64,000 nucleotides of DNA from a virus (IMGVR_UViG_2731957818_000004), one strand, 5' to 3'. Positions 1 to 22,194 are shown, counted from the first letter of the stretch. The notes: a model not told the origin generated them from the sequence alone. A program made the numbers and translations.

Positions 1-15
1 TCTACGATCTTCAAA

Positions 16-654
16 TCAGGCATATTCCACCTTCACGCGTTCTTTGTAGTGCTTGGTGATCTGCATATCCGGGCGCAGCGCGTTCTTCAGGTCTTCGTGG
101 GTCGTCGCCACCATTACCGTCGCGCCAACCTTTCGGGCGGCACGCTGGAGGTTCGACGCCACAACCTGGGCGGTTACGCGGTCGAGAACAGCGCCAAATT
201 CGTCGGCTGCCCAGACTTTGGCGCCTGACTCGATCAGCTTGGCGATCTTGAGACGGTATTTCTGACCGTCAGACATCTCGGATGGCTTACGCACAAAGAG
301 ATAGGCGTCATTCAATCCCGCCATAGACAGCAGCCCCAGCGCTTCGCTGGTGGTTTTGCCCAGCTGGTCAATGACGTTAACCTCATTGTCGAAGGTAAAG
401 TCATCGATGGAGGCTACAGAAAGCCCTTCATCCTTCATCTGGCGTTGCAGCTCGCGCAGCACAACGGATTTACCGGAACCGGATTGGCCGGTGATGTACA
501 CCACATCGCCCTGCTTCACTTCCAGCTCCAGATTGTCGTAAAGCGTCCACTCTTTTTCGTCCAGGCCAAGACCGAACGATTCGGCAATCTCCAGCGTGCG
601 CGTGGTTTTGTTCACGCGGGTCTGAAACGATACGTTGATGGTGTATTTGCTCAT
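16..654 (-). CDS. Soluble ABC-type ATPase with no transmembrane domain. Last gene of a three-gene operon.
   Basis: Walker A GQSGSGKS, ABC-signature-like MSDGQKYRL, Walker B VWAADEFGAVLD. Its ATG overlaps the upstream stop as ATGA. Confidence 0.6.
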   Translation of the reverse strand: MSKYTINVSFQTRVNKTTRTLEIAESFGLGLDEKEWTLYDNLELEVKQGDVVYITGQSGSGKSVVLRELQRQMKDEGLSVASIDDFTFDNEVNVIDQLGKTTSEALGLLSMAGLNDAYLFVRKPSEMSDGQKYRLKIAKLIESGAKVWAADEFGAVLDRVTAQVVASNLQRAARKVGATVMVATTHEDLKNALRPDMQITKHYKERVKVEYA

Positions 655-1319
655 GCAGCCAGCTCCCCAGAAGAAACTTTCTCCGCATACGCCACGAAAG
701 CGTCTACCCCGCTCTCTCCCGTGATTTCTTCCATGTGGGCAAGCAAATCCCCAACCACAATGGCAGAGCCAGCAGGGAGCGTTTTAAAGCCCAATACGTC
801 GATGACGCGGACTTCTTCAGAGGCTACTTCGCGACTGATCTCGGTGTGCTCTTCTTTCTGGCGTTCCGTCTCTTCGCCCAGATCGAGCACCAGAGAGCCG
901 GTTTCCATCTCTTCGGTCATGCTGCCGACAAGCACGTTCAGCTCGCGCTCTTCAAAACCGAAGACCTCGACGTCGCCCAGCACCAGGGATTCCAGTTCCT
1001 GCTGCAATTTGATGGCGTCGTAGTCAATACTGGCCAGGCGGTTGTCTTCCAGACGCTTTGCCTTCACTTCTTCTTCGCTCAGATCGTCGCGAACGATGAC
1101 CGGCACACGCTCCAGACCAGCCAGAAGTGCAGCCTCACGACGACCGTGGCCAGTAATGATGACGTCATGCTTGTCGACCGTGATCGGCTGGTCAAAACCG
1201 CGCTTTTTGATGGCGGCCGCCAGGTCGCGGATCTGCTGTTCGTCATGTTTTTTGGCGTTCATCTCATACGGGATGAGTTCTGCCGGGTTTCGATAGACGA
1301 TTTCAAAGTTTTTGGTCAT
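651..1319 (-). CDS. ParB/Srx-like nuclease-domain protein with an acidic C-terminal half.
   Basis: N-terminal ParB N-domain-like pattern (PAELIPY..NAKKH....IRDLAAAIKKRGFDQPITVD..VIITGHGRREAA). Start moved to the ATG at 1317-1319, which has an AAGGAG RBS and a TAATG overlap with the upstream stop. Confidence 0.55.
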   Translation of the reverse strand: MTKNFEIVYRNPAELIPYEMNAKKHDEQQIRDLAAAIKKRGFDQPITVDKHDVIITGHGRREAALLAGLERVPVIVRDDLSEEEVKAKRLEDNRLASIDYDAIKLQQELESLVLGDVEVFGFEERELNVLVGSMTEEMETGSLVLDLGEETERQKEEHTEISREVASEEVRVIDVLGFKTLPAGSAIVVGDLLAHMEEITGESGVDAFVAYAEKVSSGELAA

Positions 1320-2017
1320 TACATACGCTCCTTGTAGTAGTCGACCAGCCACACCAGGGCTTCCCCGGCGTTCTCCATTTCGTTACCGGTATTGATTCCC
1401 TGCTCTTTGATGATGGTTTTGATGGTGTCGGCGACGCGATCTGACGCATCAAACGTCACTTTGAAGCGCATCGTCTGGTGTTCAGCGCCGACTCGCTCGG
1501 TTTTCTCGCGTTTGTCCTCATCGACCGGCTCGTCATCGCCACGGGAGAGCGCTTCCAGCGCTTCAAGATCGATAACGGACGCTTTGGCGAGTGTTGCCGC
1601 CATTTCGTCGTCATACGGGGCGATATCGGACAACCGGTAGTCGATTTCAGACTGGATTTCTTCGATTAAGCGCTGCAAAGCGACCTGATCGTCTTCGCCG
1701 TAGCGCTCGTTATCGACCAGGGACATCTGTTTGGCCACCAGGTCGTTAATTTTGCCCACGGAGATGACGGGAACCGTTGAAATGCCCTGCTCCATCGCGG
1801 CACGCCAGCGGTGTTCGCCACCGAGGATCTCAAAAACGCCCCCGTCCAGCTCCCGCGCCAGAATTGGCTTAAAAAAGCCCAATTTTTCGATAGAGCCTTT
1901 CAGTTTTTCGAAGTTTTGCGCCCCAACGGAGTTGGTATTCCAGGGATTCGGACGCAGGTTCGCGACTTCCACCTGCAGAATCGTAATTTTCACATCCATA
2001 ATTCTGATACAATCCAT
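1319..2017 (-). CDS. ParB/Srx-like nuclease-domain protein with an acidic C-terminal region.
   Basis: Motif LRPNPWNTN...ILGGEHRWRAAMEQGISTVPVI, typical of a ParB N-terminal domain. First gene of the operon. Confidence 0.55.
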   Translation of the reverse strand: MDCIRIMDVKITILQVEVANLRPNPWNTNSVGAQNFEKLKGSIEKLGFFKPILARELDGGVFEILGGEHRWRAAMEQGISTVPVISVGKINDLVAKQMSLVDNERYGEDDQVALQRLIEEIQSEIDYRLSDIAPYDDEMAATLAKASVIDLEALEALSRGDDEPVDEDKREKTERVGAEHQTMRFKVTFDASDRVADTIKTIIKEQGINTGNEMENAGEALVWLVDYYKERM

Positions 2018-2018
2018 T

Positions 2019-2037
2019 GTATAAGTACTTACTCACT
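2019..2037. promoter_or_regulatory. Class B palindrome half-site (TATAAGTACTTAC) in the divergent promoter region between the ParB operon and the helicase. A TATAAT box lies adjacent.
   Basis: Seen directly. Confidence 0.45.
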
Positions 2038-2081
2038 ATAATAGCCAATTACCATACAAAAGGCACGAAGGAAAGAGGTTT

Positions 2082-3641
2082 ATGACAGTTCGGATTGTAT
2101 CGAATGCAGTCAATGCGCTGATTTCTGGCGCTGATGACAACGTGAAACGGCTCGTTCAGGAGATGTTGAGCTATGAAGTGGAGGCTGGTGACTGGAAAGG
2201 AACCAGCACGATGTTCAACTGGAGTAAAAACGCGTTCCCGGCTGGGTTTGCGAAGCCAGTAGCGGCCAACCTTCTGAAAGCTGGCATCAAATGCGTGCAT
2301 GTGCGCAAGGAAAAAGCCCCCGCGCTGGGTAATCCGAACCCGGTAGTTAACCCATTCCCGTATAACCCGGACTATGCGTATCAGGATCAGACTGTGGAAA
2401 CACTGGTGCGCGAAGGGATGATGATTGCCCAGATTGCGACGGGTGGCGGTAAATCGAACGTAGCGTGTAAGGCAGCTGCTCGCATTGGTCGTATGACGCT
2501 GTTTTTAACCACGCGCTCGGTTCTGATGTTCCAGATGGCAGAGAACTTCCAGAAATCCATCGACTACCGCGCGGAGAATGGCGAGCCGTGGTTGAAAGGT
2601 CAGAAAGTTGGGGTGATTGGATCTGGTGAGTTCCAGGTCTCGCGCCATATCAACGTTGCCACGGTGCAGACCCTGGCCAGTTTTCTCGAAGAGCCACCGC
2701 GCGACGCATCGCCGGAGAAAAAACAGTACCACCTGAAGCGCCGGGAACTGGTTAAGCGCTTTCTGTCCAGCGTTTCTCTGCTGATTCTGGAAGAGGCACA
2801 CGAATCATCTGGTTCAAACTTCTACGATATCGCCAGGTTGTGCATCAATGCCGATTACCGTCTGGCGCTGACAGCTACGCCGTTCATGAAGGACTCGACC
2901 GAGGCAAATATGCGTCTCATGGCCGTTGCCGGCCGCATTGAGATAAAGGTAACGGAGAAATATTTGATCGATCGAGGTATTTTAGCGAAACCATACTTTC
3001 TATATCATAAAATCGCGTACACTCCAGACGAGGTGCGGATTAGGGCCGAACTTGCTTCGAAACACCTGAACTTTCGGGTTGGAATGAGTACGGCTTACCA
3101 GAAAGCCTATCAATTAGGCATCGTTTACAATCTGGGCCGCAACGAGGCTATTGTGCGCGAAGCGTTAATGTACAAAAGTCACGGTCTGAACTGTATGACG
3201 CTGGTTCGTTTGAAGCGTCATGGTCAGATTTTGATGGAAATGATGAAGGAAAGCGGCCTGAAGGTCGATTTCATCTACGGAGAATCAAACCAGACTACCC
3301 GACAAGCAAAGCTCAACAGTCTGGCGGCAGGCAAGATAGATGTTCTGATTGGTTCAACCATTCTGGATGTTGGTGTCGACGTTCCAAGCGTAGGGGCGGT
3401 GATTCTGGGTGGTGGCGGCAAAGCCGAAGTTGAGATGCGCCAACGTGTTGGTCGCGGTCTTCGAGCCAAAAAGAATCAGGCTAACGTGTGCTTTATTACC
3501 GACTTTATCGACGTGAGCAACAAATATCTCATGTCGCATTCATATGAGCGGAAGCACATTATCGATACGACGCCTGGGTTTGCCGAGGGCGTATTGCCGG
3601 TGGGTAGCACATTCGATTTCACTGTTTTGAATAGAGAGTAA
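2082..3641 (+). CDS. SF2 DNA helicase (DEAD/DEAH-like; ResIII plus helicase C-terminal domain; UvsW/RecG-like candidate).
   Basis: Motif I QIATGGGKSN, motif II LILEEAHE, motif III LTATPF, motif VI QRVGRGLR. Divergent from the ParB operon. Confidence 0.7.
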   Translation: MTVRIVSNAVNALISGADDNVKRLVQEMLSYEVEAGDWKGTSTMFNWSKNAFPAGFAKPVAANLLKAGIKCVHVRKEKAPALGNPNPVVNPFPYNPDYAYQDQTVETLVREGMMIAQIATGGGKSNVACKAAARIGRMTLFLTTRSVLMFQMAENFQKSIDYRAENGEPWLKGQKVGVIGSGEFQVSRHINVATVQTLASFLEEPPRDASPEKKQYHLKRRELVKRFLSSVSLLILEEAHESSGSNFYDIARLCINADYRLALTATPFMKDSTEANMRLMAVAGRIEIKVTEKYLIDRGILAKPYFLYHKIAYTPDEVRIRAELASKHLNFRVGMSTAYQKAYQLGIVYNLGRNEAIVREALMYKSHGLNCMTLVRLKRHGQILMEMMKESGLKVDFIYGESNQTTRQAKLNSLAAGKIDVLIGSTILDVGVDVPSVGAVILGGGGKAEVEMRQRVGRGLRAKKNQANVCFITDFIDVSNKYLMSHSYERKHIIDTTPGFAEGVLPVGSTFDFTVLNRE

Positions 3642-3643
3642 GC

Positions 3644-3922
3644 ATGAGCGAGAAACGCGCTATACACTGCCAGGTTCAGTTAACCGAAAAAGCAAACGAC
3701 AAGCTGGAAACCTTTCAGAATCGACTGCGTGAACGCAATATTAAGCTGTCAAAGGCAGACATCATCAATCTGGTGCTGTCCAACATGACGATGGCTGATT
3801 TTGATAAGGCAGCTACGTCATTAGAGGCTTCTGCAAAGGCCCGTGAAAAGGTCATGAAGATTTACGAATCCTCTGGCATGACCAAAGAAGATCTGGCCGA
3901 TATTCTCAAACGTCTCGATTAA
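3644..3922 (+). CDS. Small hypothetical protein, possibly a ribbon-helix-helix DNA binder.
   Basis: 92-aa ORF starting 3 nt after the helicase stop. N-terminal beta-strand-then-helix pattern (RAIHCQVQLTEKANDKL). Confidence 0.4.
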   Translation: MSEKRAIHCQVQLTEKANDKLETFQNRLRERNIKLSKADIINLVLSNMTMADFDKAATSLEASAKAREKVMKIYESSGMTKEDLADILKRLD

Positions 3923-3981
3923 GCATTAAGGGCGTCGCAAGACGCCTTGTTCGTTGAAGTGATAAGGATTTAGTTCAAGCC

Positions 3982-4284
3982 ATGAAACACGTTCTACTTC
4001 CACTGATTACCATCCCCGTTTTACTCCTGAGTGCATGTTCATACCGCCCTGTGTCTGTAGCCGATGCAAAACCGGCGCCGCAGGCCAGAGTTTTCAAATA
4101 CCAGACGTCTGCACCAACCACGCTGGTGGTTATGAGGGACAAAGGTATGATAGGTGCGGGCTGTGACGCACTGAACCCTGCTCGTCAGGAACGCGAGACC
4201 ATCACCAAAGCTGGCGAGACGAAAGTCTTCCGGGTGTTCACCAGCAACGCAGGTGACATCGATATCCTACCAACGACACTGTGA
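3982..4284 (+). CDS. Small lipoprotein.
   Basis: Signal peptide plus lipobox LLLSAC. Confidence 0.55.
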   Translation: MKHVLLPLITIPVLLLSACSYRPVSVADAKPAPQARVFKYQTSAPTTLVVMRDKGMIGAGCDALNPARQERETITKAGETKVFRVFTSNAGDIDILPTTL

Positions 4285-4816
4285 CGATATGACGAATATT
4301 ACTGACATCACCTACGGGATTCCTGCAGAAGTCTGGCCGCGCGATTACACCAACGTGGAGAAGGCGCTGATGTTCTGGCGTAAGTCTCTCATTCCTGTAA
4401 GGGTCACGATGGAAGATGGTCAGGTGTTCTGCATGTACGTTCAGGGTCTCATGTCGTCGCGCAACAAAGTCGATCTTTGCCCTGCCCCGTTCGACAAAGA
4501 AAATCGTATAAGGCTCCCACTTGAGCGAATCAGTACGATTGAATCAGGTGTGACAGAAGGCATTGCGCACGATTTCACGGGTCGGACAACGGTACACCCA
4601 GACTATGTGGACAATCGGCCATCTCGCCGTGATTTCTTCAAAATTTGTCGCCAGGCTCATGAGATGCAGAAGTCTATAAGGGTCTACATGGCGGATGGCC
4701 GTGAACTTGAAGGTGTGTCTTCAGGCGTTGACGCTTGTCAGGTCACACTCAGCGTTGGCGATGGTCGGAAGATGGTCGTCATGTTCGATTGGGTTGAACG
4801 AATTTTACCGTTTTAA
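4253..4816 (+). CDS. Hypothetical protein. The start is uncertain; an alternative ATG lies at 4289.
   Basis: ORF adjacent to the lipoprotein gene. No recognisable motifs. Confidence 0.4.
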   Translation: MTSISYQRHCDDMTNITDITYGIPAEVWPRDYTNVEKALMFWRKSLIPVRVTMEDGQVFCMYVQGLMSSRNKVDLCPAPFDKENRIRLPLERISTIESGVTEGIAHDFTGRTTVHPDYVDNRPSRRDFFKICRQAHEMQKSIRVYMADGRELEGVSSGVDACQVTLSVGDGRKMVVMFDWVERILPF

Positions 4817-4819
4817 GTT

Positions 4820-5128
4820 ATGAAAGCGATTTTACTATCCTCAATTCTTCTCGCATCGTCCACGGCAGCCTCAGCTATGGACTATAAACCAGTTATTCAG
4901 TCACTCATGAACGACGTCTGTTCGTCATCGGACAATGTGTCGATTTGCATGTACCAGTTCGCAGCCGCTGTCAAAGCGGGAAAGACAATTGGAGAGAGTG
5001 CCCAAAACTGTAAGGGGCGTTCGGCTGACCAAAGGGAGATGTTGGAGTGTGATGCCAGCGAGTCATCGGCACACTTCGTCGATGCACTCTTTGACACTAA
5101 CCGAAAAATTGTCGAGTCTGCTCAATAA
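4820..5128 (+). CDS. Small secreted/periplasmic protein.
   Basis: N-terminal signal peptide MKAILLSSILLASSTAASA. Cys-containing mature part. Confidence 0.5.
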   Translation: MKAILLSSILLASSTAASAMDYKPVIQSLMNDVCSSSDNVSICMYQFAAAVKAGKTIGESAQNCKGRSADQREMLECDASESSAHFVDALFDTNRKIVESAQ

Positions 5129-5450
5129 ATCTATAAGGGTAATAACCGGCTAAGTCCGGTTATTATTTTACGTGTCACTTCCCGTTATATTTATTTCACC
5201 CACCACGATTCCAGTTTAAATATATAAGGGTGATTGACCGAATAGGGAATTTATTTAGGCAACACCTTCGAGAAAACGCGATTTATTTCTAAGACTTTGA
5301 TTTTTATTGAAGAAAATTTTTTTTCGTTCCCGTGTAAAAAACTCTTGATTTTAATTTCTGTATATCGATAATTAGTCACATCGAAAGCGAACACGCTAAC
5401 GATAAACAAATAACAAATTAAGTTATCAATATTACATAAGGATTAATATC

Positions 5451-6101
5451 ATGTCTAACGTTGCTATCTCTAAAAAATCCATCATCGACGCTGCTGTAGT
5501 TATCGCTAACGAATTACAAGTAGCTGCCAACAATGCTACTCAGACTTATAACAATCATTATCAGAATGGTACGCACACAAAAGCAGATAAAGCCAACATG
5601 CTTGCAGCGACTACTAAACTGGCTTATTTCACCAACAACGTTTTAAACGCTGTTAATGATGATAAACTGGTTGGCGTGTTTTACTACGCGATTAAAGCAA
5701 GTAAACAAGCGCCAGAAGTGTTTTTCCGCGAAGCTATGACAAATAGCTATTCTCTCGAAAAATTGGTTTATCTGGTTAAATCTATCAAGTCTGGTAAATG
5801 CGTTTATTCCGTCGCTGATATGTCCGGATCTCGCGTATTCGCATTAATCGAAATGATTAATGATGAATTAGAAACATTCACAAATGGCGCTGTATTCGAT
5901 TTAATGAATGAAGCTAAAAAAGCATGTGAGATTAAATTAGACGCTGGCTATACGCAAGCAAACCAGTTAATTAATCTTTGTGAACGTCTCGGACTGGTCG
6001 AGAAGATCAAAGGAATGGGCGCAGCGAAAAACGGATCGCAACAATATCGCTTTATTAAGAATGATTTTTATAACTATCTGTCTGATGCTTTCAAAGCGTA
6101 A
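5451..6101 (+). CDS. Hypothetical protein encoded in a low-GC island.
   Basis: 216-aa N/K-rich ORF with an AT-rich upstream region and an AGGA-type RBS. Followed by a rho-independent terminator. Confidence 0.5.
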   Translation: MSNVAISKKSIIDAAVVIANELQVAANNATQTYNNHYQNGTHTKADKANMLAATTKLAYFTNNVLNAVNDDKLVGVFYYAIKASKQAPEVFFREAMTNSYSLEKLVYLVKSIKSGKCVYSVADMSGSRVFALIEMINDELETFTNGAVFDLMNEAKKACEIKLDAGYTQANQLINLCERLGLVEKIKGMGAAKNGSQQYRFIKNDFYNYLSDAFKA

Positions 6102-6111
6102 TTAGATGGAT

Positions 6112-6138
6112 ATAGCGCCCACTATGGGCGCTATTTTT
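6112..6138 (+). terminator. Intrinsic terminator, copy 1 (AGCGCCCACTATGGGCGCT plus T-run).
   Basis: GC hairpin followed by TATTTTT. Confidence 0.6.
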
Positions 6139-6151
6139 AAGGATAAAAATC

Positions 6152-6355
6152 ATGATTAGTTATGACCAGATCCGCGCGGAATATCGCGCAAAATATCGCG
6201 CTTATAAACTTGAATTAATCGACGACTTAAAAGCGCAACGTGACAAATTAAATTTTACGTTTTCTGATTTGCTTAACAGTAAAAGAGACTGTAAGCGCAA
6301 GCGTGAATATTTGCGCTTGTCTGAAATGATCGGAAAACTGCAAAACAGCATTTAA
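6152..6355 (+). CDS. Small basic helical protein.
   Basis: 67-aa ORF followed by a second copy of the same terminator. Confidence 0.4.
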   Translation: MISYDQIRAEYRAKYRAYKLELIDDLKAQRDKLNFTFSDLLNSKRDCKRKREYLRLSEMIGKLQNSI

Positions 6356-6360
6356 GCAAT

Positions 6361-6385
6361 AGCGCCCACTATGGGCGCTTTTTTC
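6361..6385 (+). terminator. Intrinsic terminator, copy 2: an identical hairpin.
   Basis: AGCGCCCACTATGGGCGCT followed by TTTTTTC. Confidence 0.65.
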
Positions 6386-6404
6386 GTTTCAAGATCCGCA
6401 CATC

Positions 6405-6433
6405 ATAACGCGCCATTGTTGGCGCGTTTTTTG
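6405..6433 (+). terminator. Intrinsic terminator.
   Basis: AACGCGCCATTGTTGGCGCGTT followed by TTTTTG. Confidence 0.5.
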
Positions 6434-6839
6434 TCTGAAGTCAGCCAAAACAGACCCAAAATAAGCGCCATAAATGCGCCAATTTAACGCGTTTTTATGT
6501 GTGGTGGTACATACCCATTACCCACAATAAAATCACGTTATAGCGCGTTTTACAGCGTTTTAGCGCGTGGATTATTTTGTCGTGTCGTGGGCGTGATCGT
6601 CTGGCGATAGCTGGCGACGTGATCCGCGCTATCCTTCGGGACGTGTCGGCAATGTTGGCGCTATCCGTGGGCGCTCGCGTATCATTGGCACGTTAGCGCG
6701 ACGTGTACGCGCTTGCAGTGGTTTACCCACGGATTCACATAATCACATAGCGAAAGCTATCTGGATGGCTCAGGGGCTGAAACCCACCAGCGCTACCCCA
6801 GCGCCCCTGCGATATTTTCTGGCAGGATTCTGGGCTTCT

Positions 6840-8614: not shown

Positions 8615-8926
8615 TCAGGCTGTCGCCAGGAGAGAGGCACGCTGGATTTCTTGCTGGGCTACTTTGTTCGCTTCCAGTAGCGCCTGTTCCAGCTCTCCTT
8701 CCGGCCAGATGATCTGTTTTGCCATCCACCCTCTTCCACTCTGGCGACGCACACTCATTACGTAACGCGTGCGGGAACCATTGTCGAACGAGACCAGCGT
8801 CTCTTTGAACAGGCGAATGGCAGTGCCGTTGGCGATGATATCGAGCAGGGTCAGCTGGCTCATTACGGTTGGTTTTTCTTTACGTGGCTGGCCCGCGCTC
8901 AGTTTGGTGATCATCGCGTTTTTCAT
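8615..8926 (-). CDS. Hypothetical early protein.
   Basis: Class A motif plus GGAG RBS upstream. A terminator lies downstream at 8561-8581. Confidence 0.55.
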   Translation of the reverse strand: MKNAMITKLSAGQPRKEKPTVMSQLTLLDIIANGTAIRLFKETLVSFDNGSRTRYVMSVRRQSGRGWMAKQIIWPEGELEQALLEANKVAQQEIQRASLLATA

Positions 8927-8938
8927 AATTCACTCCGT

Positions 8939-8954
8939 AAACAACTTGTTTTCT
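8939..8954. promoter_or_regulatory. Class A palindrome, leader of 8615..8926, with extended -10 TGGTATTAT.
   Basis: Seen directly. Confidence 0.6.
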
Positions 8955-9065
8955 TGTTGGTGTAAATAATACCAGCGAGAAAACGGCTACAAAGCATAGC
9001 GTTACGGTGCTGCGCTGCCCGGAGGTTGCAAACAGCAAAAAGCCACCGTGCTGGTGGCCTCACGC

Positions 9066-21992: not shown

Positions 21993-22110
21993 GATAGTTT
22001 TCCTTACTGTGGTTCATAAAATCGATTCTAGAGCGTCTGAAGAGGGGTTCCAGTGGGTTCTGGAGGTGTAAAACGGTCAGGGAGTTGTTTGGACATCACG
22101 TCTTAAAAAG

Positions 22111-22167
22111 CCTGCGTCTGTATATATTAATAATTAGTACTTAGTTATTTATATATACAGACGCAGG
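22111..22167 (-). terminator. Very long hairpin with a 17-bp perfect stem (CCTGCGTCTGTATATAT ... ATATATACAGACGCAGG), a 23-nt loop and a T-run on the minus strand. It is the terminator after the dam-like gene.
   Basis: Seen directly. Confidence 0.6.
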
Positions 22168-22194
22168 TTCTCAAACTAACTCCCAGACTGGTGT

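Follow-up and report, generated by a model that had tools for sequence, protein, structure and literature searches.

The first 3,641 positions of the window (the whole stretch of viral DNA that we analysed, 64,000 nucleotides of IMGVR_UViG_2731957818_000004) carry these features:

1..23, minus strand: start of a fourth operon gene (84 aa, phrog_796, a variable slot; the translation, MPDLKIVE..., matches the gene at 8769-9023 of locus L002)
16..654, minus strand: soluble ABC-type ATPase, 212 aa (ORF call; Pfam ABC_tran, 4e-13; phrog_293, 6.5e-59)
651..1319, minus strand: ParB/Srx-like protein B (ParB-B), 222 aa from ATG (Pfam ParB_N, 9e-9; phrog_930, 3e-115)
1319..2017, minus strand: ParB/Srx-like protein A (ParB-A), 232 aa (Pfam ParB_N, 7e-14; phrog_723, 6.5e-86)
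2018..2081, no strand: divergent intergenic region of 64 bp with the palindrome core TAAGTACTTA (sequence inspection)
2082..3641, plus strand: SF2 DNA helicase/translocase of the XPB/Rad25/UvsW type, 519 aa (Pfam DEAD/ResIII/Helicase_C; PDB profile matches)

The longest ORF for ParB-B begins with a GTG at 1352, and an alternative ATG at 1999 would give a ParB-A of 226 aa. The ORFs and the sequence agree that the three minus-strand genes are coupled, as a preliminary description of this DNA had stated: as read in the sequence, the genes for ParB-A and ParB-B overlap as TAATG (1321-1317), and those for ParB-B and the ATPase overlap as ATGA (654-651). That description holds for gene content and coupling, but not for the end of the operon, which it placed at position 16, because the ATG of the fourth gene (23-21) overlaps the ATPase stop codon as ATGCCTGA and its ORF leaves the window. 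The operon is cut by the window edge, and in full it extends past position 16. Its continuation can be read in SSU5 and in plasmids that are 99% identical: the 84-aa gene, a gene for a 296-aa GNAT-fold protein, and an 88-aa gene, followed by TerS, TerL, portal, and capsid. Between this operon and terS there is a large palindrome. The gene order is ParB-A, ParB-B, ABC ATPase, a variable small gene, the GNAT-fold protein, and a small conserved protein. The trio in the window is the front half of this lytic-cycle operon of at least six genes in an SSU5-type phage-plasmid. Because the window cuts the operon, the decisive GNAT-fold partner was invisible in the preliminary description.

The helicase is indeed divergent from the operon across the 64-bp gap, and it is divergent and syntenic throughout the SSU5 clade. 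Its Pfam matches (DEAD, ResIII, and Helicase_C) lie at about 1e-13 to 1e-15, and its PDB matches are to XPBII (3e-12) and UvsW (2e-7). The gap had been thought to contain a half-site of a class B palindrome. The complete 10-bp core is present (2022-2031), but its flanks match the 20-bp consensus poorly. A simple scan found no sigma-70 consensus promoter in the 64-bp region or elsewhere in the operon.

ParB-A and ParB-B are collinear and 27% identical over 221 aa, which bears out their description as paralogues. Their supposed acidic tails are internal linkers, which are followed by a conserved C-terminal domain, and the term "nuclease" is an annotation label: we identified no nuclease-specific feature in the ParB proteins. 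ParB-A has the motifs NPWNxN, GGEHR, and DNxRYG and, by an alignment of its orthologs, a conserved C-terminal NAGDAL domain. Only ParB_N was detected in ParB-A by Pfam, with no HTH domain, and its PDB profile matches cover just the N-domain of Noc/ParB/Spo0J. We found a recognisable sequence-specific DNA-binding domain in neither ParB-like protein. At the CTP-clamp boxes (GERRxRA and ENLQR), ParB-A reads GGEHRWRAA and DNERYG, of which only G-x-H-R/T and DNxRYG persist in its orthologs; ParB-B reads GHGR, and this motif and PYxxNxKxH are conserved in its alignment. ParB-B is of a subtype that phage DNA methyltransferases also carry at their N-terminus (phrog_498 "DNA methyltransferase", 2e-32; PADLOC MTase_II, 6.5e-18), and what PADLOC matches in the ParB proteins is the ParB part of ParB–methyltransferase fusions.

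The ATPase was described as soluble with Walker A, signature, and Walker B motifs, and these are all there (GQSGSGKS at aa 56-63, SDGQ at 128-131, and VWAADE at 147-152), along with the D-loop (AVLD) and the H-loop (TTHE). All of them are invariant across the family alignment. The best structural matches of the ABC fold are nucleotide-binding domains (NBDs) of transporters; the domain also resembles ABC-F and ABCE1. Both the ATPase and the 296-aa protein encoded downstream hit a common set of fused archaeal ORFs, the former in their ABC half and the latter in their GNAT half. For one fused ORF (L089), the E-values for the ABC and GNAT halves were 2e-57 and 5e-18 with phmmer and 1e-81 and 1e-82 with jackhmmer. 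The N-terminal extension and consensus motifs of the COG2401 family are present, as is a GNAT-like domain with HYK and RGxG; the GNAT fold and cofactor-loop motifs are intact in the 296-aa protein, and so are the ATPase motifs. The ATPase is orthologous to the N-terminal half of the fused ABC–GNAT proteins and is one half of a split COG2401-type ABC–GNAT enzyme. Membership in COG2401 does not in itself supply a mechanism. (The literature that we searched contained nothing on the function of COG2401, on ParB with ABC and GNAT, or on hypermodification in SSU5, and no report of a modified base in SSU5-type phages.) The GNAT fold is a generic one, and the usual acyl acceptors of GNATs are proteins or small molecules.

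In many distant relatives, ABC and GNAT form one chain: single ABC–GNAT proteins of about 450-500 aa recur commonly in the 943 profile hits. There are also ParB–Zn-ribbon–ABC–GNAT triple fusions, whose loci lie directly upstream of terminase and whose ParB domain matches ParB-B (hhalign 98.1%, E = 8e-14), a PolB–ABC–GNAT protein that we read on 24 contigs, within a viral replication module, and a Gins51_C–ABC–GNAT protein. ParB is both linked to the enzyme in the operon and fused to it in the triples, a linkage that is also characteristic of the DNA modification systems with a ParB partner (Dnd, Dpd, and ParB–MTase).

The core of the operon is directly upstream of TerS/TerL/portal in all five SSU5-clade loci, at about 40-45% identity; one of the five is a prophage that is integrated in a Dyella chromosome of 4.99 Mb. 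Synteny, which takes in terminase and replisome genes, is kept in the Dyella prophage, Hyphomonas, Ectothiorhodospira, Pseudomonas phage nickie, and Rhizobium phage RHEph10. Among the 19 other (non-SSU5) bacterial loci, TerL is within 6 kb in six and ParB is adjacent in nine; TerL is also within 6 kb in 2 of 8 archaeal loci (Bathyarchaeia/Nitrososphaeria) and at both triple-fusion loci. At two loci (L115 and L117), ABC–GNAT abuts TerL with zero genes between them. Fused copies in Bathyarchaeia can sit amid cellular genes with neither ParB nor terminase, and we found no functional clue in their chromosomal neighbourhood. A scan of viral contigs with the GNAT profile matched only near-identical SSU5-like loci. 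At least 778 sequenced plasmids, from Klebsiella, E. coli, Enterobacter, Yersinia, and Salmonella, carry the genes. By these comparisons, ParB–ABC–GNAT is a widely conserved core module of phages and not a variable island.

RNA-seq data are available for E. coli LF82 carrying Cyrano, which is a relative with 82% DNA identity and not the element in the window (PMC9928086, S1 table). In the Cyrano lysogen, the ParB-like genes (5.0 and 9.5), the ABC gene (9.2), and the GNAT gene (8.0) are at background (median 9.8), as are TerS, TerL, and the MCP (7-8), while RepA (133) and ParA (49.8) are expressed in the plasmid state (PMC9928086). By these data, which sample lysogeny and not the timing after induction, the operon is silent in the plasmid state. 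The helicase ortholog is at 46, against the background of 9.8 (PMC9928086, S1 table), so the helicase is regulated differently from the ParB operon.

We propose, with a little less than even confidence, that the operon encodes a single machine: an ATP-driven, acyl-CoA-dependent transferase, formed by the split ABC NBD and the GNAT, which the ParB/Srx NTP-binding modules bring to DNA. The ParB-like proteins would bind the phage DNA and there recruit the enzyme or gate it, the ABC domains would dimerise with ATP and so clamp or present the substrate, and the GNAT domain would then transfer an acyl group. The likeliest target would be a base in replicated phage DNA, which would receive a protective mark just before packaging; alternatively, a DNA-bound protein might be acylated. 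Either way, the enzyme would act between replication and packaging. The formation of a complex, the DNA target, the acyl transfer, and its purpose are what we infer. The fusion partners (ParB, DNA polymerase, and GINS) and the adjacency to terminase suggest DNA as the site of action, but given the Bathyarchaeial copies among cellular genes, phage DNA is not necessarily the substrate of the core enzyme. Other points against the proposal are that the papers searched report no modified base for SSU5-type phages, that the GNAT does not match Mom significantly in profile comparison, that most GNATs have other targets, that TerL was detected near only six of the 19 non-SSU5 bacterial loci, and that a sequence-specific DNA-binding domain was recognised in neither ParB-like protein. 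TmcA is an example of an ATPase-coupled GNAT that acts on a nucleobase.

Databases and the phage-plasmid literature call these genes ParB or partition proteins, and an unusual partition or segregation module had been suggested. In such a module, the ParB paralogues would bind a centromere and the ABC ATPase would be the motor. This is very improbable and, indeed, largely refuted: ParA is not adjacent (the window has no ORF with KGGxGK[ST], and the neighbouring ATPase is ABC-type, with GQSGSGKS and SDGQ), no HTH_ParB domain was detected, no repeat array was found in 1-6500, and conservation of the module extends to a prophage that is integrated in a chromosome. On a plasmid with 99% identity, a ParA-type ATPase (KGGPGKS; Pfam AAA_31/MipZ/CbiA) is encoded about 30 kb from the operon, in agreement with the earlier view that the trio is not the element's partition pair, and the separate ParA is expressed in the plasmid state while the operon is silent. 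(Cyrano's CYRAN_99, "MinD", is not the partition ATPase: by Pfam it is of the Mrp/NUBPL type, and the relevant gene is CYRAN_28.) A phage-plasmid-borne defence system in the style of OLD, Gabija, or PARIS, with ParB-type nucleases replacing Toprim, had also been proposed, and we consider it quite improbable. ParB-family proteins do occur in conflict systems (PMC5512222, PMC10853773), and PADLOC gives weak hits of the ATPase to mad3 (1.8e-13) and mad8 (1.2e-8) and of the helicase to PbeA (1.8e-22). However, these hits reflect generic ABC and helicase homology; other than the ParB part of ParB–methyltransferase fusions, PADLOC gave only generic P-loop/ABC hits in the operon, with the ATPase-Toprim hit at just E = 0.0019 and none for the GNAT protein. 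(MADS, mad1-8, was rejected as well, as its other components match no operon protein.) Also, the ABC domain is of the transporter class and not the SMC/OLD class, the module is a syntenic core beside terminase that is found in phages deposited as isolates, such as nickie, and expression is at background in the lysogen, the state in which a defence gene of a prophage ought to be active. Conservation as a phage core module and silence in the plasmid state argue against both a partition system and a defence system that a prophage expresses; an anti-defence role via DNA modification is possible.

A rather unlikely but more substantial alternative is that the module is a packaging accessory. The ParB/Srx proteins would be NTP-regulated nickases or DNA-recognition factors that help terminase to start or resolve packaging, and ABC–GNAT would acetylate TerS, TerL, portal, or a nucleoid protein (HU or Alba), so that DNA is cleared or licensed for encapsidation. 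GNATs mostly acetylate proteins, and in several phage lineages that are unrelated to one another, the module directly precedes TerS/TerL, even touching TerL at the two loci mentioned above; the palindrome before terS would fit as well. For ParB-family domains encoded next to late genes, a role as NTP-regulated DNases has been proposed (PMC5512222), but neither ParB protein has an identified nuclease-specific feature. Furthermore, the PolB and GINS fusions point to replication instead of packaging, and the SSU5 clade already has a TerS-like gene. Host takeover, in which the GNAT would acetylate a host target (aminoacyl-tRNA, the ribosome, or a metabolic protein), an ABC-F-like ATPase would be its targeting motor, and the ParB-like proteins would degrade or sense nucleotides, seems improbable. 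The resemblance to ABC-F and ABCE1 favours it, as does the PHROGs category of the ABC and GNAT families ("moron, auxiliary metabolic gene and host takeover"). But the fusion partners (ParB, PolB, and GINS) are DNA-transaction proteins and not translation factors, and strict synteny with packaging genes is unusual for takeover genes.

A broader and distinctly tentative possibility is that ParB–ABC–GNAT is an unrecognised ATP- and acyl-CoA-dependent system for DNA hypermodification. It would make an acylated base, would be coupled to replication (as in the PolB and GINS fusions), would finish before packaging, and would be present in tailed viruses of bacteria and archaea, including hundreds of clinical enterobacterial phage-plasmids. 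If the product is a new DNA modification, there would be consequences for restriction evasion, for the host range of phage-plasmids with resistance genes, and for detection based on sequencing. More immediately, the routine labels for these genes are "ParB partition protein" and "ABC transporter", and "parB" is among the marker genes named for screening SSU5-type phage-plasmids. Reading them as components of a single lytic-cycle enzyme corrects the annotation and separates them from the element's real maintenance genes. It also defines a conserved module (ParB/Srx, ABC NBD, and GNAT) that is tractable by experiment.

With type I ParABS systems (P1, F, and pMT1 parAB), the operon shares the N-terminal ParB/Srx fold, which by PDB matches is closest to the NTP-binding domain of Noc/ParB/Spo0J, but it lacks the ParA partner, the HTH and dimerisation domains, the parS repeats, and expression in the plasmid state. 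As in OLD, Gabija GajA, and PARIS AriA, a soluble ABC-superfamily ATPase accompanies proteins annotated as nucleases; here, however, the ATPase is from another ABC clade, a scan of the operon proteins detected no Toprim or DUF4435 partner, and the genes are in a core position and silent in the lysogen. Family-specific motifs are shared with the COG2401-type [quoted passage not shown] (MK0520-like). Unlike those fused proteins, the enzyme here is encoded by two genes, which small genes often separate, and is flanked by two ParB/Srx genes and terminase. (JGI and ENA annotators already apply the COG2401-type label.)

Among DNA-modification systems, Dpd, which makes 7-deazaguanine, pairs a ParB/Srx protein with a DNA-modifying enzyme (the ParB-like ATPase DpdB and the transglycosylase DpdA), and phage ParB–DNA methyltransferase fusions also join ParB to a DNA-modifying enzyme. 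The N-terminal modules of those fusions are the closest relatives of ParB-B, but unlike either system, the operon has no TGT-like or methyltransferase domain and has a separate ABC ATPase. Mom of phage Mu is a GNAT-fold protein that modifies adenine in DNA, but it works without ABC or ParB partners and lacks a 120-aa C-terminal helical domain; we rejected homology to Mom, as the likeness is only at the level of the fold (hhalign of the family profile, probability 0.2%, E = 0.31). The precedent for a ParB-superfamily protein that acts with an ATPase and a DNA-modifying enzyme is Dnd phosphorothioation, which combines DndB, an NTPase or regulator of the ParB superfamily, the ABC ATPase DndD, and DndC/DndA/DndE (PMC10853773). 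The combination here is similar, but the enzyme is a GNAT instead of a PP-loop/cysteine desulfurase pair, and the setting is a phage lytic operon instead of a host defence island.

The window belongs to an SSU5-type phage-plasmid: over its first 4 kb, identity is 96.8% with Salmonella phage SSU5 and 99.2% with ~110 kb IncFIB plasmids from Citrobacter and Enterobacter, and this region is present on 778 PLSDB plasmids. The genes considered here are:

16..654, minus strand, ABC ATPase (212 aa)
651..1319, minus strand, ParB-B
1319..2017, minus strand, ParB-A
2082..3641, plus strand, divergent helicase

A preliminary description had the lengths, strands, and overlaps of these four ORFs right, and Pfam, PHROGs, and NCBIfam all back its domain reading, with ParB_N in two of the proteins, ABC_tran in the third, and DEAD/ResIII/Helicase_C in the helicase (nearest matches XPB/Rad25 and T4 UvsW). 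The 212-aa protein has the full set of ABC motifs, which are also invariant across its wider family, and ParB-A and ParB-B are indeed paralogs (collinear, with 27% identity over 221 aa). The acidic regions that had been described as tails are present, but they are linkers: in each protein the acidic stretch joins an N-terminal ParB/Srx domain to a C-terminal domain that is small and conserved. ParB-A could start at either of two ATGs in the same frame (2017 and 1999), neither with a clear Shine-Dalgarno sequence; the resulting 232-aa and 226-aa forms are both found among database annotations.

The window edge truncates the operon, as the next gene begins at 23-21 and overlaps the stop codon of the ABC gene. 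In SSU5 and plasmid NZ_CP048417, the same strand continues after the ABC gene with:

84-aa gene
296-aa gene (phrog_886)
88-aa gene
195-bp gap
213-aa TerS-like DNA-binding protein
TerL, portal, and major capsid protein

The 296-aa protein is confidently predicted to adopt a GNAT fold (pLDDT 90) with an extra C-terminal helical domain; along with several basic residues, its HYK motif and CoA-loop motif (RxxGxG/S) are invariant.

Gene fusions link these parts. Searching 1.84 billion representative proteins by profile turned up 943 relatives of the GNAT protein; many of these are 450-500 aa long and have an N-terminal ABC domain that shares the motifs of the window's ABC protein. (Both halves carry the JGI/ENA label "ABC-type ATPase with predicted acetyltransferase domain," which is the COG2401 label.) Four proteins of 666-699 aa have another domain ahead of ABC–GNAT, and both ParB-B (hhalign 98.1%, E = 8e-14) and ParB-A (hhalign 96.1%, E = 3e-9) are homologous to it; immediately downstream of one such triple fusion come a 158-aa gene, TerL, portal, and MuF. 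In the replication module of an uncultured virus, a 1260-aa protein, read on 24 contigs, joins a family B DNA polymerase to ABC–GNAT (7001-10783 of L152/L153), and other metagenomes (L150/L151) encode the C-terminal domain of archaeal Gins51 joined to ABC–GNAT (Gins51_C–ABC–GNAT). These fusions argue that ParB, ABC, and GNAT are parts of one machine. The ABC domain of one matching protein (P0290) is interrupted by an intein. The slot between ABC and GNAT (1-23 in the window; relatives L003-L005 and L144-L146) varies in content: it is empty in Cyrano, an SSU5-like phage-plasmid, and in Dyella, and it holds the 84-aa gene in the window's element and Phage_gp49_66, RyR-domain, or DUF2829 genes in other relatives. 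This slot resembles a small hotspot for insertions within a split enzyme.

The order helicase (divergent), ParB-A, ParB-B, ABC, zero to three small genes, GNAT, a small gene, TerS, TerL, portal, capsid recurs, with protein identity of ~40-45%, in five places:

a prophage in the 4.99-Mb Dyella telluris chromosome
Ectothiorhodospira
Hyphomonas
Pseudomonas phage nickie
Rhizobium phage RHEph10

Among 19 loci from Planctomycetota and other bacteria, at least 9 have a single ParB-like gene after ABC/GNAT (fused or adjacent) and at least 6 have TerL within 6 kb, and TerL is nearby in at least 2 of 8 Bathyarchaeia/Nitrososphaeria loci; these are lower bounds because detection was by iterated searches seeded from the window's element. 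Some Bathyarchaeial copies sit among cellular genes. By its conserved gene order, the ParB–ABC–GNAT block is a core phage module.

Supplementary normalised RNA-seq counts are available for E. coli LF82 carrying Cyrano (PMC9928086). The ParB-like genes (5.0 and 9.5), ABC (9.2), and GNAT (8.0) are at the median background of 9.8, as are TerS, TerL, and the major capsid protein (7.1, 8.4, and 7.4), so the operon is repressed with the late genes in the plasmid state. In contrast, the helicase across the 64-bp intergenic region escapes this repression (46); RepA and ParA are at 133 and 49.8. Downstream of the helicase is a 92-aa gene (3644-3922, plus strand; phrog_1466, function unannotated), whose Cyrano ortholog CYRAN_117 reaches 114 against the background of 9.8, as a moron or maintenance gene would. 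Another Cyrano gene, CYRAN_99 (L154 3739-4839), adjoins a MetRS gene and is at ~9x background; although labelled "septum site-determining protein MinD," it belongs to the P-loop proteins of Mrp/NUBPL type (PF10609, 2e-102).

Earlier work on related phage-plasmids remarked on the duplicated ParB and took it as partition. The preliminary description held that the trio is not the P1-type ParA/ParB pair, and elsewhere on the plasmid there is indeed a ParA-type ATPase, small in size (KGGPGKS; AAA_31/MipZ/CbiA) and accompanied by a 117-aa partner. We reject partition because there is no ParA beside the trio, Pfam and PDB profile matches detected no HTH_ParB domain in either ParB, a search near the trio found no centromere-like repeats, and the module is also kept in an integrated prophage. 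The suggestion of a defence system fared no better: PADLOC gave only generic ABC/helicase similarity (mad3, mad8, PbeA), plus the ParB portion of ParB-methyltransferases, with no match for the GNAT protein. The module's syntenic core position and its silence in the lysogen speak against a prophage defence island.

The 64-bp region holds a 10-bp palindrome, TAAGTACTTA (2022-2031), 5 or 23 nt upstream of the ParB-A start depending on which ATG is chosen (2017 or 1999). With up to one mismatch, it occurs at 15 sites in the window versus 0.5 expected: four are exact (2022-2031, 21748, 41478, and 43528) and 11 have one mismatch (e.g., 8531, 16251, 22806, and 32389). The extended consensus is about ATAGG-TAAGTACTTA-CCTAT. 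As 12 of the 15 sites lie outside ORFs of at least 90 aa, many of them within ~50 nt upstream of a minus-strand gene start, we infer that its probable role is that of a dispersed element, either operator or phage promoter. Two large perfect palindromes have centres similar to this motif: CTGCTTCCGTATATAT(21 nt)ATATATACGGAAGCAG, just past the window edge in the gap separating the 88-aa gene from terS (7518-7570 of L002, a relative that extends further), and CCTGCGTCTGTATATAT...ATATATACAGACGCAGG (about 22110-22170 in the window). The linear SSU5 GenBank record terminates within the former, which might serve in regulation or lie close to cos/pac. Two copies of a GC-rich hairpin with a T run after it (ATAGCGCCCACTATGGGCGCTATTTT; 6112-6137 and 6359-6384, 96% identical) flank a 67-aa ORF and look like a pair of terminators.

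The trio genes are already annotated in hundreds of records, and our literature search turned up nothing that describes the ParB–ABC–GNAT unit, its fusions, or its link to terminase. The ParB, PolB, and GINS fusions, along with the neighbouring terminase genes, point to DNA as where the ABC–GNAT enzyme works, at a stage between replication and packaging. Given these observations and the precedents below, we propose that a ParB-tethered, ATP-gated ABC–GNAT may transfer an acyl group to phage DNA. The main alternative is that it acylates a DNA-bound or packaging protein instead. The acyl-transfer hypothesis is directly testable in culturable phages.

Dnd is a precedent for combining a ParB-superfamily protein with an ATPase and a DNA-modifying enzyme, as are Dpd and the fusions of ParB to methyltransferases, to which ParB-B shows its greatest similarity (PADLOC, PHROGs). 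C-P lyase is a soluble enzyme powered by transporter-class NBDs, and TmcA, in which an ATPase is coupled to a GNAT, acetylates a nucleobase. Mom resembles the GNAT protein in fold alone. We class the module as a putative member of the ParB-assisted DNA-modification or DNA-processing systems.
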